This document shows, piece after piece, positions 10,857 to 64,000 of a stretch of 64,000 nucleotides of DNA. The stretch is taken from the IMG/VR virus record IMGVR_UViG_3300028175_000001. One strand, written 5' to 3'. Every line of letters starts with the position of its first letter. Position 1 is the stretch's first letter. The translations under genes were made by a program, and so were the position numbers. The stretch comes from a virus. Lineage: Duplodnaviria > Caudoviricetes. The notes beneath the pieces were generated by a model. The model was not told the origin of the DNA and made no database searches. It worked only from the letters and a program-made list of their open reading frames with translations.

Positions 10857-11635
10857 AATTCCTGTACAGGTGATTCATGTAATTCATAGTGTTTGATATC
10901 TTTCATATTTTTATTATTGAAAAGATGAGATGTATTGAACAATGTCACTTTATTTTTTAATTGATATTGTTCTTTATTATAGTTTGAAAATAGGTCTTTT
11001 TCCCACAAATTCAATTTATTATTTCTATGATGCTGATAAAACAAATATTTGTCTAAACTTTTATATGTCCATTTTATCTTTTCCCAATTATTTTTAGTAT
11101 AAGTTAAAAGCCAAGAAGCTGTCCCTTTATCCCATGCAACAAATGATGAGTTTGTATGACAAGACACTCCGCGACCATAATTGAATAAACTAATTTTTTC
11201 ATAATCATTCCAATAGTTCCATATAAATGTAATATTATGATGTTTTCTTGTTATCAATTCGGTTATATCTTCATGAACCAATACATCTAAATCTATCCAA
11301 ATATTTTTATCATATTCGTCATTATCAATAAGAAATAATTTTTCATATGTAAAAACTCTCTTTGTATCATATGGCCTAAGTTCTTGTATATCCTTTGTTT
11401 CGATTCTAGAAGATATTCCTCTAGAATCATCAGTATAGCACACAAAATGAAATGGAACTCGACAATATTTCAACAATCCACCATACGTTCTATTAACATA
11501 ATCAAAATTATATTTTGTACCCCACTTGAGACAATTAATTTTAATCTTATTCATAGATAAACAATGGCTCCATTTTTTTGAACGACTCATCAGGATCATC
11601 ATATGGCACGTCTTTGACAAACCAAGATTTATCAA
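10829..11635 (-). CDS. GT8-like phage glycosyltransferase (likely start 11554)
   Basis: INCLKWGTKYNFDYVN..FVCYTDD..EKLFL..IWIDLDVLV..NSSFVAW. Confidence 0.7.
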   Translation of the reverse strand: MINLGLSKTCHMMILMSRSKKWSHCLSMNKIKINCLKWGTKYNFDYVNRTYGGLLKYCRVPFHFVCYTDDSRGISSRIETKDIQELRPYDTKRVFTYEKLFLIDNDEYDKNIWIDLDVLVHEDITELITRKHHNITFIWNYWNDYEKISLFNYGRGVSCHTNSSFVAWDKGTASWLLTYTKNNWEKIKWTYKSLDKYLFYQHHRNNKLNLWEKDLFSNYNKEQYQLKNKVTLFNTSHLFNNKNMKDIKHYELHESPVQELWKTYSIGL

Positions 11636-12380
11636 TTTTATTATACATTATAACATCATAAACTAATTGGGCAAACTTCATGTTTTGTTCTGATGTCATG
11701 TGATTTAATAAAAAAATATCACTGTTGGACGCTTGACCAACTATATGCCCAATGGGAATTTTCACATAATCAAAATTACTCGAATCCAAAGAATCAAATA
11801 TTAACGAATTCAATAATTTGGTAGAGGTTATATTAAAATTTTTATAATAACTTATATAATGATCTAAACTAAAACAAGTGAAAACTATAAATCTAATATT
11901 TTTAAAGTTGTTAGCTATTAATCGCAAAAAAGAAATATTTTTTACATTTTCATACAAAAACATTGGTCCTAAAGATTGTGCAATAATTTTAATTTCATTA
12001 CCAAGTTTTAAAATACTTTCGAAGTTCTGAGACGTGTTCCCCGCAACTTTTTTCATGAAATGAGCATCTCCCGCATAATCATCTTCTGCTATTTGAAAAA
12101 TACCATAAGCCGAATCATTTTTATTTTTCAAAAACGAAAAGTTTAGTCTTTTTTGATCTGACAAAGCCACAAATACTGTATCATGCGGTTTAATAAGTTC
12201 TTCTTCTAATTGAAAAACAAGTTTTGTTAAGGCATCATTGGGACCCGATCCGGCCTTCCCAAAACCCCGCACGTTTTCCTTTTTCAATACTGACAATCGA
12301 TGAGGCCAACAACATTTGTCTGTAACATTTTCACAAATACAAGCAAAACTATCTCCAAAAATATGAATTGTCATTTCCAC
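11547..12380 (-). CDS. SGNH/GDSL hydrolase-like protein (acyl esterase or transferase)
   Basis: IFGDSF block I, GKAGSGP block II, NHMT distal His; ends FIYE. Confidence 0.65.
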   Translation of the reverse strand: MEMTIHIFGDSFACICENVTDKCCWPHRLSVLKKENVRGFGKAGSGPNDALTKLVFQLEEELIKPHDTVFVALSDQKRLNFSFLKNKNDSAYGIFQIAEDDYAGDAHFMKKVAGNTSQNFESILKLGNEIKIIAQSLGPMFLYENVKNISFLRLIANNFKNIRFIVFTCFSLDHYISYYKNFNITSTKLLNSLIFDSLDSSNFDYVKIPIGHIVGQASNSDIFLLNHMTSEQNMKFAQLVYDVIMYNKIDKSWFVKDVPYDDPDESFKKMEPLFIYE

Positions 12381-13411
12381 TGATCTCCAAATGTATCAAA
12401 CCCTGTACCGCATTTTTCTGCACACACTATTGATTTTCCCTGTGAACAAGAACTCATATTCCAAGACTGTTCTATTTTTCTGAAAAAACTTCCTTCTATT
12501 ATTTCATTTAATGGTTTATATAAAGCATTAATGTTTTTAATATCATCTAGATAATACCATATCTGGTTCTGTCCTAATTGTTCATATAATTTATATAATT
12601 TTCCAGCAGTCCAACAACAGGGGGTAACCAATCCCTCTGCTGAAATATAAATTTCTCTTGACTTTAAAGATTTACATTCTATTCCAGTACTGTCTAAATA
12701 ATTTTGAAAAGTGCCGTGATAGTTAAGCAGTTTATCATATTCGTTTACACTTTTATTTTGATGTTCTTTTTTGATTGGAGGCTTAATTTCATTTCCTTTA
12801 ATAGTTGTTTTTTTGAATATTTTATCATCTTTATAGCTTTGAACCCATCTACCAGTTTTTTTCTTTATAAAATCAAGACCGAATAATTTAGCCATACGTT
12901 CTGCTTCTTCCACTTGATGCTCATTGTGTTCAAATATCAAAAACACCCAAACACCTTTTCCGCCTGCTTGCGTAAACACATCCATTGAATTTTCAACTCG
13001 GGCCCAATCAACATTTACTCGATATAAATGATTCGTATCATCCAAACCATCTACCGAAAAAGACACTCTACCGTGATGTCCAAAAATTCCTGCAAGTCTT
13101 TTCCACCAATCATCTGATCGTCCTCCAGCATTTGTAGTCATATGAAGATATAAGTCTTTATTATTATATCGCAACCATTCATATATGTCAAGGGAGTCTT
13201 TTGCCGCCAGGGGGTCTCCATGATTGCCACACATGAGAAAACTAGTCAATTGTTGTGCTAAACTAACATCGATAATTTGTTTAAATTGATCAATAGAAAT
13301 TTCAGCATTCTTTATGTGTGGATTATTGGTTCTATCACACATAGGACACATTGCTTGACATTTTTGTGTAGGCTCAAAATGTATATGTCTTATATCATTA
13401 AGTCTGTACAT
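12371..13411 (-). CDS. Radical SAM protein with C-terminal twitch/SPASM (subfamily A)
   Basis: CQAMCPMC; CGNHGDP; TNAG; FSVDGL; IFEHNEHQ; C-term CKS..ISAEGLVTPCC..CAEKC. Confidence 0.92.
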   Translation of the reverse strand: MYRLNDIRHIHFEPTQKCQAMCPMCDRTNNPHIKNAEISIDQFKQIIDVSLAQQLTSFLMCGNHGDPLAAKDSLDIYEWLRYNNKDLYLHMTTNAGGRSDDWWKRLAGIFGHHGRVSFSVDGLDDTNHLYRVNVDWARVENSMDVFTQAGGKGVWVFLIFEHNEHQVEEAERMAKLFGLDFIKKKTGRWVQSYKDDKIFKKTTIKGNEIKPPIKKEHQNKSVNEYDKLLNYHGTFQNYLDSTGIECKSLKSREIYISAEGLVTPCCWTAGKLYKLYEQLGQNQIWYYLDDIKNINALYKPLNEIIEGSFFRKIEQSWNMSSCSQGKSIVCAEKCGTGFDTFGDQWK

Positions 13412-60085: not shown

Positions 60086-60165
60086 TCGAATGATTGAAAG
60101 GGGCGCGGCCTGGGTGGTGGGGGTGCAGATCCATTCTTCCACTCAGACCTCCCTGCGCCATTCGA
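60086..60165. ncRNA. Candidate structured RNA: GC-rich nested stem element in an intergenic gap
   Basis: 42/60 GC over 60100-60159. Nested stems TCGAATG/CATTCGA, GGCGC/GCGCC and GCCTGGGT/ACTCAGAC. Strand and class unresolved. Confidence 0.45.
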
Positions 60166-61216: not shown

Positions 61217-61303
61217 TTAAAAAGAATACATAATAATTATCGTCAAATACATCATACCAAACAACAATAACGCTGTTGTAATTTCTTTAATCAACATAGT
61301 CAT
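61217..61303 (-). CDS. 28-aa hydrophobic micropeptide (below the ORF track cut-off)
   Basis: MTMLIKEITTALLLFGMMYLTIIIMYSF*; first ORF after the promoter at 61359-61387, with the same leader motif as gene 61397. Confidence 0.5.
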   Translation of the reverse strand: MTMLIKEITTALLLFGMMYLTIIIMYSF

Positions 61304-61358
61304 AATCAAATCTCAGTTGAGTTAAAACAGAAAGGAATAATTCCTAACCTTCACTTAT

Positions 61359-61387
61359 ATTATCTCAAATATAGGATGAAGTGTCAA
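61359..61387 (-). promoter_or_regulatory. sigma70-type early promoter
   Basis: TTGACA (61387-61382), 17 nt, GATAAT (61364-61359). Confidence 0.8.
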
Positions 61388-61396
61388 GTCTTTTCT

Positions 61397-61974: not shown

Positions 61975-62289
61975 TTATTTATAATCAAACCATCTAATGG
62001 GTTTGTTGTATCGTGTTAATAGTTCGTCTAAATTTATAATCAATTCATCAGACTTGAAGTCCCAAAGCCAATCGCTTAATGCGTTCCAATCTTCTGTTTG
62101 CATCACAGGAAGATGGATTTCCCAACCACGAGGATGGAAGTTTTCGTTTTCGGAATCACCACCTCTAATATCAATTCTACCACCTGACCATTCACCACCG
62201 TGTTTATCTGTCCATTCTCGACCCTTTTCTAACAGACACCATTCGGCATCTATTGGCCCCATCCAGTTCGAACAATAATTATATTTCAT
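61975..62289 (-). CDS. Hypothetical Trp-rich phage protein
   Basis: 104 aa ATG ORF overlapping the upstream stop. Confidence 0.7.
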   Translation of the reverse strand: MKYNYCSNWMGPIDAEWCLLEKGREWTDKHGGEWSGGRIDIRGGDSENENFHPRGWEIHLPVMQTEDWNALSDWLWDFKSDELIINLDELLTRYNKPIRWFDYK

Positions 62290-62582
62290 GGTACTTTTGG
62301 CCCTGTTATACCACCGTGTTTTTCACACACTTCATCCACCACTTCGATAGGAACCCATCCATAAACTGTCCCTGTCAATTCATCTTTGTTTTCAGCATAA
62401 CTTTCTATCAACGATTCTGCTGAACTCGGAAAACCAATTTCAACGGTGTATGGCCCACTGTAATGGTAATGACTATTCTGCACGCTCATAGAAAATCCAT
62501 CTTTACATTCTACGACAGATACTAGCTCTGGCCGATATTTGAGGTGTCCTCTATATTTATTCATGTATGTTGATATATTCAT
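62286..62582 (-). CDS. Conserved hypothetical phage protein
   Basis: CKDGFSMSVQ..HYS..VEIGFPS..YAE..TVYGWVP..HGG pattern. Confidence 0.75.
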   Translation of the reverse strand: MNISTYMNKYRGHLKYRPELVSVVECKDGFSMSVQNSHYHYSGPYTVEIGFPSSAESLIESYAENKDELTGTVYGWVPIEVVDEVCEKHGGITGPKVP

Positions 62583-62869
62583 TCCAAATCCATGTTTAAG
62601 GTTTCTAAATCAGACATTTTAATTTCTTCCGTCATCATCAGTGTTAAAAAGCACGACCACGCATCGTCTTCTGTGCCAAAATCTTTATCGTATGAGGCAA
62701 ACCCCTTTTCAGATAATCCTCTCACGGATACTCTAAATGTGAAGATTACCGAATGTGGGGTGATGTCGCCATGATAAACTACGAGTGCCAATTCTTCACA
62801 TTCACCATGAACGGAAGTTTGGTGAAATGACAAATCAGTTTTTTTATATATTTCAACTCTCGGTATCAT
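62579..62869 (-). CDS. Hypothetical protein
   Basis: 96 aa ATG ORF directly after tRNA-Trp, overlapping the next gene. Confidence 0.65.
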   Translation of the reverse strand: MIPRVEIYKKTDLSFHQTSVHGECEELALVVYHGDITPHSVIFTFRVSVRGLSEKGFASYDKDFGTEDDAWSCFLTLMMTEEIKMSDLETLNMDLE

Positions 62870-62880
62870 ATCATTTTCTC

Positions 62881-62954
62881 TGGCTGGTCATGTAGGAATC
62901 GAACCCACGTCTTCAAGTTTGGAATTTGAGGTTTTACCATTAAACTAATGACCA
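62881..62954 (-). tRNA. tRNA-Trp(CCA)
   Basis: Cloverleaf; loop TTCCAAA; GGTTCGATTCC T-arm; CCA encoded. Confidence 0.92.
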
Positions 62955-62961
62955 TTTAAAC

Positions 62962-63036
62962 TGGAGCCTCGTATTGGAATCGAACCAATATCTGAAGATT
63001 ACAAATCATCTGTAATTGCCATTATACTAACAAGGC
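62962..63036 (-). tRNA. tRNA-Thr(UGU)
   Basis: Cloverleaf; loop TTTGTAA; TTCGATT T-loop; CCA encoded. Confidence 0.92.
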
Positions 63037-63038
63037 GT

Positions 63039-63114
63039 TGGTAGGCGTGGGTGGATTTGAACCACCTTTGGAAGTATATAAGACTCCGAGCTTAACCAAT
63101 TAGCAGACACGCCT
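63039..63114 (-). tRNA. tRNA-Ile(UAU)
   Basis: AGGCGTG/CACGCCT acceptor; GGAGT-CTTATAT-ACTTC anticodon arm; TTCAAAT T-loop; ACCA end. Confidence 0.9.
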
Positions 63115-63129
63115 ATTGTTACTAAAATA

Positions 63130-63203
63130 TGGCGGCCTTTGAGGTATTTGAAACCTCCCTAAATGCTTGACAAGCATTCGTGCTACCACTACACCAAAAG
63201 GCC
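63130..63203 (-). tRNA. tRNA-Asp(GUC)
   Basis: AATGC-TTGTCAA-GCATT anticodon arm; GCCA end. Confidence 0.92.
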
Positions 63204-63209
63204 AAATTG

Positions 63210-63286
63210 TGGTGGCGGAGGTGAGAATCGAACTCACTTTATACCTGCTTATGAGACAGGTCAAGATGCCTACCTTGCCCTCCGCT
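63210..63286 (-). tRNA. tRNA with CAU anticodon (Met, possibly initiator-like)
   Basis: CCTGT-CTCATAA-GCAGG; A1:C72 mismatch; A11-U24; ACCA end. Confidence 0.88.
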
Positions 63287-63313
63287 ATTGTTAAAATAAT
63301 CTTCTATGAAAAA

Positions 63314-63389
63314 TGGAGCGAGTAGAGGGATTCGAACCCCCACCAAAAGATTGGAAATCTCTTGTGCTACCCTTGAACACCATACTCGC
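63314..63389 (-). tRNA. tRNA-Gly(UCC)
   Basis: AGAGA-TTTCCAA-TCTTT; GGTTCGAATCC; TCCA end. Confidence 0.93.
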
Positions 63390-63401
63390 AGTCTATTATA
63401 G

Positions 63402-63671
63402 TTATTTTGCCAGAATAGTTAGTTTGTCAAGCTGTCCGATAGGATCATATCCTGGCATAATGTCACACACTCTATTATCTTTCAAATGAGTTTGTAATCG
63501 ATCACTAACGTGATCATATACACCTTCGTGTTGTTCCATCATATCAGCCATCATTGAAATCAGATAACCAAACTCGTGATATATTCTATTAGGTTCTGAT
63601 ACATCATAATGAACAGAACTTTCCTCCAACATCTGTTTCACTGTTTCTTCATTCTTACGCCAAGTATTCAT
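63402..63671 (-). CDS. Hypothetical protein inside the tRNA cluster
   Basis: 89 aa ATG ORF with AGGTGA RBS. Confidence 0.7.
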   Translation of the reverse strand: MNTWRKNEETVKQMLEESSVHYDVSEPNRIYHEFGYLISMMADMMEQHEGVYDHVSDRLQTHLKDNRVCDIMPGYDPIGQLDKLTILAK

Positions 63672-63713
63672 TTATCACCTGTATCATATTAAATATTTAT
63701 CATAATGTAAGTA

Positions 63714-63834
63714 AAGAGTAGATAGGAACATGAGCATGTCGCCCGTCTGTACACGCTCTTAGCGTGCCAACATTTATAATGAGACTCGATTACGGGATTT
63801 CTTGCGCTCCGCTTCCACATTCCTATCCACTCTT
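63714..63834 (-). ncRNA. Candidate ~120-nt structured small RNA with its own consensus promoter
   Basis: 5' AAGAGTGGATAGGAATGTG pairs with 3' CATGTTCCTATCTACTCTT (16 WC + 3 G-U), enclosing CCCGT/ACGGG and hairpins CATT-ATA-AATG and CACGCT-AAG-AGCGTG; begins at the predicted TSS. Confidence 0.75.
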
Positions 63835-63842
63835 CATATACT

Positions 63843-63871
63843 ATTATACAGTAAAGTAAACTGTTTGTCAA
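63843..63871 (-). promoter_or_regulatory. Perfect-consensus sigma70 promoter
   Basis: TTGACA (63871-63866), 17 nt, TATAAT (63848-63843). Confidence 0.9.
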
Positions 63872-63893
63872 GTTATTTCTCAACTATTTTCAC

Positions 63894-63985
63894 TGGCAGA
63901 GCCGACAGGATTCGAACCTGTGGAAGTTTTATTAAACCCCTCTTCATTAGCAATGAAGTGCTTTAGGCCACTCAGCCACGACTCT
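63894..63985 (-). tRNA. tRNA-Ser(GCU), long variable arm
   Basis: CTTCA-TTGCTAA-TGAAG; long extra arm; GGTTCGAATCC; GCCA end. Confidence 0.93.
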
Positions 63986-63993
63986 ATTAATTT

Positions 63994-64000
63994 TGGCGGA
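63994..64000 (-). tRNA. 3' end (..CCGCCA) of a further tRNA cut by the window edge
   Basis: tggcgga matches the CCA-end pattern of the neighbouring tRNAs; only 7 nt are visible. Confidence 0.4.

Follow-up and report, generated by a model that had tools for sequence, protein, structure and literature searches.

The window analysed in this study, the whole 64,000-nt stretch of DNA from a virus of the Caudoviricetes (IMG/VR record IMGVR_UViG_3300028175_000001), has a GC content of approximately 30 % and carries nearly all of its genes on the minus strand. Read along that strand, the locus comprises tRNA-Ser(GCU) (63894-63985), an early promoter (63843-63871) with the tRNA-Ser gene directly upstream of it, an inverted-repeat element, an AU-rich spacer, ORF89 (63402-63671) and a block of six tRNA genes (62881-63389; Gly, Met, Asp, Ile-UAU, Thr and Trp), the tRNA genes having been located with ARAGORN. 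The element itself consists of a 5′ arm (63816-63836), an 83-nt interior or ‘loop’ (63733-63815) and a 3′ arm (63714-63732), and the ORF list contains an open frame of 43 codons within it (63689-63820). The spacer (63672-63713) separates the helix formed by the two arms from ORF89 by 43 nt and contains the ribosome-binding site of that gene, AGGUGA (63680-63675). ORF89, present in the ORF list and among the gene calls, encodes a helical orphan protein of 89 aa and is probably the first cistron behind the promoter; the six tRNA genes, which begin 12 nt after it, are likely to be co-transcribed.

The wider setting could be seen in a longer metagenome contig from the same phage (L036:1-13042), in which positions 11027-13042 correspond to 61985-64000 of the window. 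Here the locus forms part of an array in which 22 tRNA genes occupy about 8 kb; the array is broken into sub-clusters by small ORFs and promoter cassettes and includes both tRNA-Ile(UAU) and tRNA-Ile(GAU). Within the array, tRNA-Thr(UGU) (window 62962-63036) was only ~53 % identical to its counterpart in four related contigs (L012, L002, L021 and L032), whereas the tRNAs flanking it were 94-100 % identical in the same contigs, a pattern that looks like the allelic replacement of a single tRNA gene. A separate intergenic element of the window (60086-60165) is GC-rich (~70 %) and contains nested complementary runs, with no Rfam match at the gathering score. Approximately 2.5 kb upstream of the inverted-repeat element, related contigs (L001/L008/L013:1-1372) carry adjacent genes with Pfam matches to PycTM (PF18967) and Lipase_3 (PF01764); the former is the membrane effector domain of Pycsar defence systems, found here inside a phage genome.

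The promoter consists of TTGACA (63871-63866) and TATAAT (63848-63843) separated by 17 nt, and was the sole site with a 12/12 match in a 4-kb scan; the extended promoter pattern occurs once in the window. From promoter geometry, transcription is predicted to start at 63835-63837, 6-8 nt past the −10 hexamer. The promoter belongs to a family of cassettes whose conserved part, CTG-TATAAT-AGTATRTG-AAGAGTGAGA, recurs at another site of the same genome (L036:2424), where it precedes an unrelated gene, and in the IMG/VR contigs L038 and L039; looser copies of the motif lie at window position 61364 and at L012:3589, L012:3804 and L020:253. A profile built from eight other cassettes, from which the locus under study was left out, detected the locus promoter at E=0.0035, and at least eight other promoters with this start motif, in the same and related phages, drive ordinary small genes. 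One 89-bp cassette, composed of TTGACA-17-GATAAT and a leader, was found twice in one genome at 98.9 % identity (window 61300-61388 and L036:3827-3915). It is very likely that a minus-strand RNA beginning with the terminal helix is made, since the promoter is perfect, is conserved in the ~25 metagenome contigs described below and is a member of a recognizable promoter family. The leader hairpins of the sister cassettes were weak, with z scores not above shuffles, and the notion that all early leaders of this phage carry hairpins was dropped for this reason. Two further observations concern the cassettes: the window copy of the 89-bp cassette precedes a hydrophobic mini-ORF of 28-30 aa (61309-61217), and on one of the IMG/VR contigs with the cassette motif ARAGORN calls a permuted tmRNA with the tag ANNDDYTAYSFALAA (L039:7113-7526).

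The terminal helix pairs 63834-63816 with 63732-63714 over 19 bp, three of them G-U, and is extendable to 63836, giving a length of 19-22 bp. When the full leader is folded, pairing in the helix extends to predicted nucleotide 1 or 2 at pair probabilities of 0.92-1.0, and the ribosome site and AUG of ORF89 lie outside the helix and are mostly unpaired. On the minus strand the element of ~120 nt (63836-63714) had a minimum free energy of −45.0 kcal/mol, against −30.2 ± 3.5 kcal/mol for shuffled sequences (z −4.27); the plus strand reached −34.6 kcal/mol (z −3.04), approximately 10 kcal/mol weaker. The minimum-energy structure also contains a CCCGU/ACGGG helix and one 7-bp apical hairpin, GCACGCU-AAG-AGCGUGU (63767-63751). 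However, the 83-nt interior folded on its own gave −17.3 kcal/mol against −19.3 ± 2.9 kcal/mol for shuffles (z +0.69), no better than chance, and so the enclosed helices are no more than chance structures and the whole folding signal is the inverted repeat. The helix is therefore the feature to be explained. The interior is made up of two blocks of ~55-60 % GC around an AT-rich centre, and this richness in GC relative to a genome of 30 % GC could mean that the interior matters.

These results bear out much of a preliminary description of the locus, which had proposed a perfect minus-strand sigma70 promoter with a 19-bp helix starting exactly where that promoter predicts transcription to begin; both features were confirmed. 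The same description read the three G-U pairs as support for a real minus-strand RNA. These pairs do form on the minus strand only, and that strand does fold better, but the polarity argues only weakly for selection on it, because three transition differences between inverted copies would all fall in this direction by chance in one case out of eight. Of the internal structure described, CCCGT/ACGGG with two hairpins, the former and a single hairpin were recovered in the minimum-energy fold and the second hairpin was absent from it.

On the minus strand, no terminator-like site was found between 63900 and 63400. The base of the helix is A-U rich, lacks a U tract and is followed by UACUUACAUUAU; the GC-rich hairpin and U tract of an intrinsic terminator, such as would bound an sRNA gene, were not found. 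The only other promoter-like site before ORF89 matches the consensus at 9/12 positions and would start transcription inside the ribosome site, and no strong promoter was found between ORF89 and the six tRNA genes. On the simplest reading the hairpin is therefore a 5′ leader, since there is no terminator and ORF89 follows 43 nt downstream with a good ribosome site and without a convincing promoter of its own. ORF89 looks like a real gene, as it was called in all contigs and its variable sites comprise seven synonymous and six non-synonymous changes. Its only relatives in protein sets of 5.8 billion and 1.84 billion sequences, the latter a set of representatives searched exhaustively with HMMER, were members of its own cluster (≥96 % identity), which places diverged copies of the element out of reach through ORF89. 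The protein had no Pfam or PHROG family, its model was a helical bundle (pLDDT 74) for which a fold search of PDB and BFVD returned no match at E≤0.001, and a language-model atlas yielded nothing usable.

Contigs assembled from RNA libraries span the hairpin and ORF89 without a break and continue into the tRNA genes (X1 record 2 and X4 record 22), which is consistent with one transcript without being proof of it. As assembled contigs, these records reveal no starts, ends, strand or levels of RNA, and their uncovered parts carry no meaning. They also cover the non-transcribed spacer of the promoter and may reflect read-through or carried-over DNA. In three RNA libraries the contigs branch into other contexts at 63828 and at 63858/63878, and the ends of contigs at 63861 and 63828 mark branching at the repeated promoter and not the termini of an RNA.

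We searched widely for relatives of the element. ARAGORN and the Rfam tRNA model (RF00005) found only the flanking tRNAs, even at E≤10, in agreement with the earlier statement that the element is not a tRNA. Although the apical hairpin allows an anticodon arm to be drawn, a degenerate tRNA was rejected, as the element has neither a T arm with the GTTCRANYC loop nor an acceptor stem. The earlier statement that the class of RNA is not recognized likewise held when the Rfam comparison was run: no family reached its gathering score and none of relevance appeared at E≤10, and no covariance model, whether of 6S RNA, bacterial Y RNA (YrlA) or another Rfam family, matched the element. The rows at E≤10 that overlap 63714-63837 were sR4, Spy779816 (at the promoter edge) and emrB-Lactobacillus (on the other strand), all unrelated families that scored far under their gathering scores. 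At the nucleotide level, blastn of the region against 50,697 phage records gave no match, a scan for the interior of the element found it absent from 185,579 prokaryote species genomes, and a scan of genome contigs for the cassette likewise yielded no match. Exact and degenerate pattern scans of IMG/VR found the 51-mer absent, and an 18-mer hairpin pattern had only a chance match there (L016), on a contig without tRNAs and without homology. Searches through neighbouring genes were of a similar outcome. Homologues of ORF92 and ORF104 (47-79 % identity) were on short contigs or on contigs without the element, tblastn of neighbouring proteins against cultured phages gave distant matches only, and the contigs reached through neighbouring proteins either lacked the element or carried the same near-identical module.

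The homologues that were recovered all belong to one nearly clonal population, approximately 25 metagenome contigs that were collected via ORF89 and an invariant 24-mer and are 95-100 % identical across the element. The 24-mer scan of metagenomes contributed nine contigs, all with the same two haplotypes or mixtures of them. Haplotype A has GUG-GAUAGG with CCUAUC and haplotype B has GUGAGAGAGG with CCUCUC, the difference amounting to one double change from U-A to G-C and a one-base bulge. The helix is kept in all haplotypes, at −36 to −45 kcal/mol, and the sole arm substitution seen is matched on the opposite arm in ~9 contigs. This matched change is not usable as covariation, since the arms are copies of each other and gene conversion could produce it too; nor does conservation of the helix demonstrate selection, because the population is nearly clonal. 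Mixed combinations of arms, with a mismatch, were present in four contigs (L002, L009, L012 and L033), and these discordant combinations show that the helix tolerates a mismatch. Counted from alignments, the element has ~6 variable positions in 123 nt and ORF89 has 13 in 270 nt, so that per site the element varies about as much as the gene. Of five relatives whose features were compared one by one, four had the AU-rich spacer in identical form (100 %) and the fifth, L001, carried a single change in it.

A further variant was seen at low depth in an RNA-library contig, in which 51 nt of the interior are missing between two GAGCG repeats and the 3′ arm is shortened. This variant refolds into a hairpin of −34 kcal/mol at the 5′ end, and two further changes in its arm turn U-G to C-G and G-U to A-U. 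It would fit a view in which the helix matters and the interior does not, although it could instead be an artefact of reverse transcription or assembly.

The 5′ arm is the start-of-transcript motif of the cassette family, extended by the locus-specific GAUAGGAAUGUG, and the 3′ arm is an inverted copy of the leader of this locus in particular. The duplex of the 3′ arm with its own 5′ arm had an energy of −28.2 kcal/mol, against −12.3 ± 2.6 kcal/mol for shuffled arms, and with the leaders of other cassettes the 3′ arm paired no better than shuffled sequence. An anti-leader sRNA directed against all early messages was dropped on these grounds. The inverted repeats extend beyond the helix, to 63679-63694/63836-63851, and thereby reach the real −10 hexamer. 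On the plus strand, a comparison by eye of the L012:3804 cassette with CATAAT, the spacer GTAAGTA (63701-63713) and the six helix-arm bases that follow gave a match at 17/19 positions; this suggestive continuation of the inverted copy past the RNA helix has a −10-like hexamer and no −35. A profile search placed the plus-strand cassette copy at a weak E=9.5, yet this was the best plus-strand match in the window. A convergent antisense promoter was rejected, as the plus strand has neither a −35 nor an extended −10. Inverted similarity past the helix is not explained by selection at the level of RNA, and this points to an origin of the arms in an inverted duplication at the level of DNA, with weak support from the plus-strand profile (E=9.5).

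Such an origin may be seen beside the promoter early stem-loops (PeSLs), which are mobile regulatory cassettes of T4-type phages described for RB49/phi1, PST/T4 and nt-1/KVP40 (PMC2839356, PMC4122927). In common with PeSLs, a near-consensus sigma70 promoter is repeated here in variable regions with conserved flanks, identical promoter copies stand before different genes, homology between related phages breaks inside the cassette, and partial or degraded copies lie nearby. The cassettes also coincide with insertions, deletions and replacements between close relatives. ORF96 is 80 % and tRNA-Thr 53 % identical between relatives whose adjoining modules are at 96-100 %, and one contig (L032:549-1100, reverse strand) carries the module with an unrelated upstream region, without tRNA-Ser and without the −35, its homology to the window beginning at the −10 (ACTG-TATAAT). 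The L032 module could be a real recombinant or a chimeric assembly. In these comparisons the cassettes behave as recombination seams, as described for PeSL cassettes. However, in classical PeSLs the stem-loop precedes the −35 and serves as terminator of the gene before it (PMC2839356, PMC4122927), whereas here the promoter is preceded by tRNA-Ser and then 22 nt without a hairpin, and the hairpin that is present is found downstream, where it forms part of the transcript, and has about ten times the size.

Taking this evidence together, we consider there to be about an even chance that the element is the 5′-terminal leader hairpin of an ORF89-tRNA transcript, with an end-protecting or RNase III processing role, and that it represents an oversized variant of a PeSL-like cassette. 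Under this reading, a strong sigma70-type promoter, one copy of a cassette repeated through the variable regions of this phage group, would start transcription at ~63836. The first ~20 transcribed bases, being the conserved start motif of the cassette and a short locus-specific stretch, would pair with their own inverted copy ~85 nt downstream into a helix of 19-22 bp flush with the 5′ end. Transcription would run on through the 43-nt spacer with its free ribosome site, ORF89 and the six tRNA genes. The arms may have arisen when the promoter-proximal leader underwent a local inverted duplication or gene conversion, and the interior would be largely dispensable filler.

The helix would then act in cis, its paired 5′ end being expected to hinder attack of the RppH/RNase E type on a message that lies in a tRNA-processing operon. 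Base pairing at the 5′ terminus protects E. coli mRNAs from 5′-end-dependent decay (Emory 1992, Bouvet & Belasco 1992, as cited in PMC3997798). As in the E. coli 5′ stabilizers of ompA and papA, the helix would begin 0-2 nt from the predicted 5′ end, which would place it within the limit of ~2 nt for a stabilizer if transcription starts at 63835-63837, as promoter geometry predicts. The known stabilizers, in contrast to the element, are hairpins of 10-30 nt from E. coli. The processing role would also be in keeping with the anatomy: the helix spans about two turns and occupies the leader of a first early cistron that follows a strong promoter, in which it resembles the stabilizers and the leader sites of RNase III alike. 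Helices of about two turns are a known kind of RNase III substrate, as in the early R sites of T7 and the N leader of lambda, and at 19-22 bp the present one is a predicted site by the measure of ~20 bp or more of regular duplex. The hairpin would also be carried on read-through RNA from the upstream tRNA array, and cleavage by RNase III at the helix may separate the tRNA-Ser precursor from the ORF89 message. A protective or processing role would be sensible in this position, where without it the message released by cleavage after tRNA-Ser would begin with a vulnerable 5′ end. Against the leader reading stands the size of the element, as 120 nt far exceeds the needs of a protective hairpin.

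Among the alternatives, the discrete novel sRNA of ~120 nt put forward in the preliminary description, possibly acting as a decoy, was not upheld: no terminator ends it, its interior folds at chance level, its 5′ arm is generic to the cassette family, and ORF89 lies 43 nt downstream without a good promoter of its own. A discrete, stable RNA of ~120-130 nt could still be freed by weak termination or by cleavage in the spacer and act in trans on a protein or on RNA polymerase, and we regard this as rather unlikely. The strong promoter and the very stable closed rod behind it would suit such an RNA, as would the G-U pairs that favour the minus strand and an interior that is GC-rich for this genome, and a hairpin flanked by AU-rich single strand would survive cleavage by RNase E and could accumulate. 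An accumulating hairpin could, however, be a mere remnant of decay, and the natural variant lacking 51 nt of the interior, an element no more conserved than the neighbouring gene, the absence of any Rfam family at E≤10 (6S and Y-type included) and the failure of the 3′ arm to pair well with any leader other than its own, which leaves an antisense role against other early leaders unsupported, all argue against an sRNA. The location in a tRNA array parallels that of T4 rnaC (species 1, 139 nt) and rnaD (species 2, 119 nt), which are of similar size and lie in the tRNA region. The analogy, which the preliminary description had drawn, nevertheless breaks down at the level of anatomy, the two T4 RNAs being tRNA-derived. 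A canonical tRNA T arm (GGGUUCGAAUCCC) and an acceptor-like closing stem are present in T4 rnaC, which adjoins tRNA-Arg as part of a precursor; the element, in contrast, lacks any tRNA-like arm, possesses a promoter of its own and precedes a protein gene. There is a slim prospect that the hairpin, once cut out or terminated, builds up into a stable, phage-specific RNA that has its own function and belongs to a class without known relatives; such an RNA might, for example, serve as a double-stranded decoy of host proteins that bind RNA or act in defence, or as a leader RNA that modifies the polymerase so that it reads through the tRNA array.

A second alternative takes the inverted leader copies to be a functionless scar, left by cassette recombination or a local inverted duplication, in which the hairpin is incidental and tolerated; to this we also attach a low probability. 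The inverted similarity appears to pass from the transcribed helix into the −10-like hexamer and beyond, promoter cassettes are the recombination seams of this region, and degraded half-cassettes near indels are known for PeSLs (PMC4122927). A scar would likewise accommodate an interior that is random-like in its folding, the circulation of mismatched arm combinations and a rate of change about that of the neighbouring gene. Against it, the plus-strand cassette match is statistically weak (E=9.5), and on the transcribed strand each of the three transition differences between the arms gives a G-U pair. In ~9 contigs the single observed arm substitution is accompanied by a matching change in the opposite arm, and the two further changes of the variant arm replace G-U wobbles with C-G and A-U pairs. 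A long hairpin right at a strong promoter is, moreover, unlikely to be neutral for downstream expression.

It is very improbable, finally, that the element encodes a 43-aa protein (AUG at 63820-63818, stop at 63689) whose start is masked by the 5′/3′ fold-back in the manner of repressed small toxin messages. The frame stays open over 43 codons, with its stop 17 nt ahead of the ORF89 start, its AUG is preceded by the purine-rich AGGA, the 51-nt deletion of the variant is in frame and restores an AUG to that frame, and of four substitutions within the frame two are synonymous; but AGGA adjoins the AUG with zero spacing, this ribosome site and the AUG are locked in the helix with a pair probability near 1, the C-terminus is frameshifted in the 51-nt-deletion variant, the frame was never called as a gene in 24 or more contigs by callers that report ORFs of such size, it has no Pfam match, no language-model look-alike and no hydrophobic stretch of transmembrane length, no credible antisense promoter accompanies it, and an open stretch of 43 codons in one of three frames is not unusual. 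A type I toxin–antitoxin module was rejected on the same features, the frame having no hydrophobic stretch or family and the plus strand offering a −10-like hexamer with no −35.

In summary, the wider consequence of the element is small unless a discrete RNA with its own activity exists. If the reading of the element as the 5′ leader of the ORF89-tRNA transcript is true, the locus shows how a large tRNA operon of an uncultured marine phage accommodates a protein gene, which gains its own strong promoter cassette and a paired 5′ end made by inverting a piece of that cassette. On the same condition, the PeSL idea of portable, recombining promoter cassettes would extend to marine phages and to hairpins carried within the transcript.
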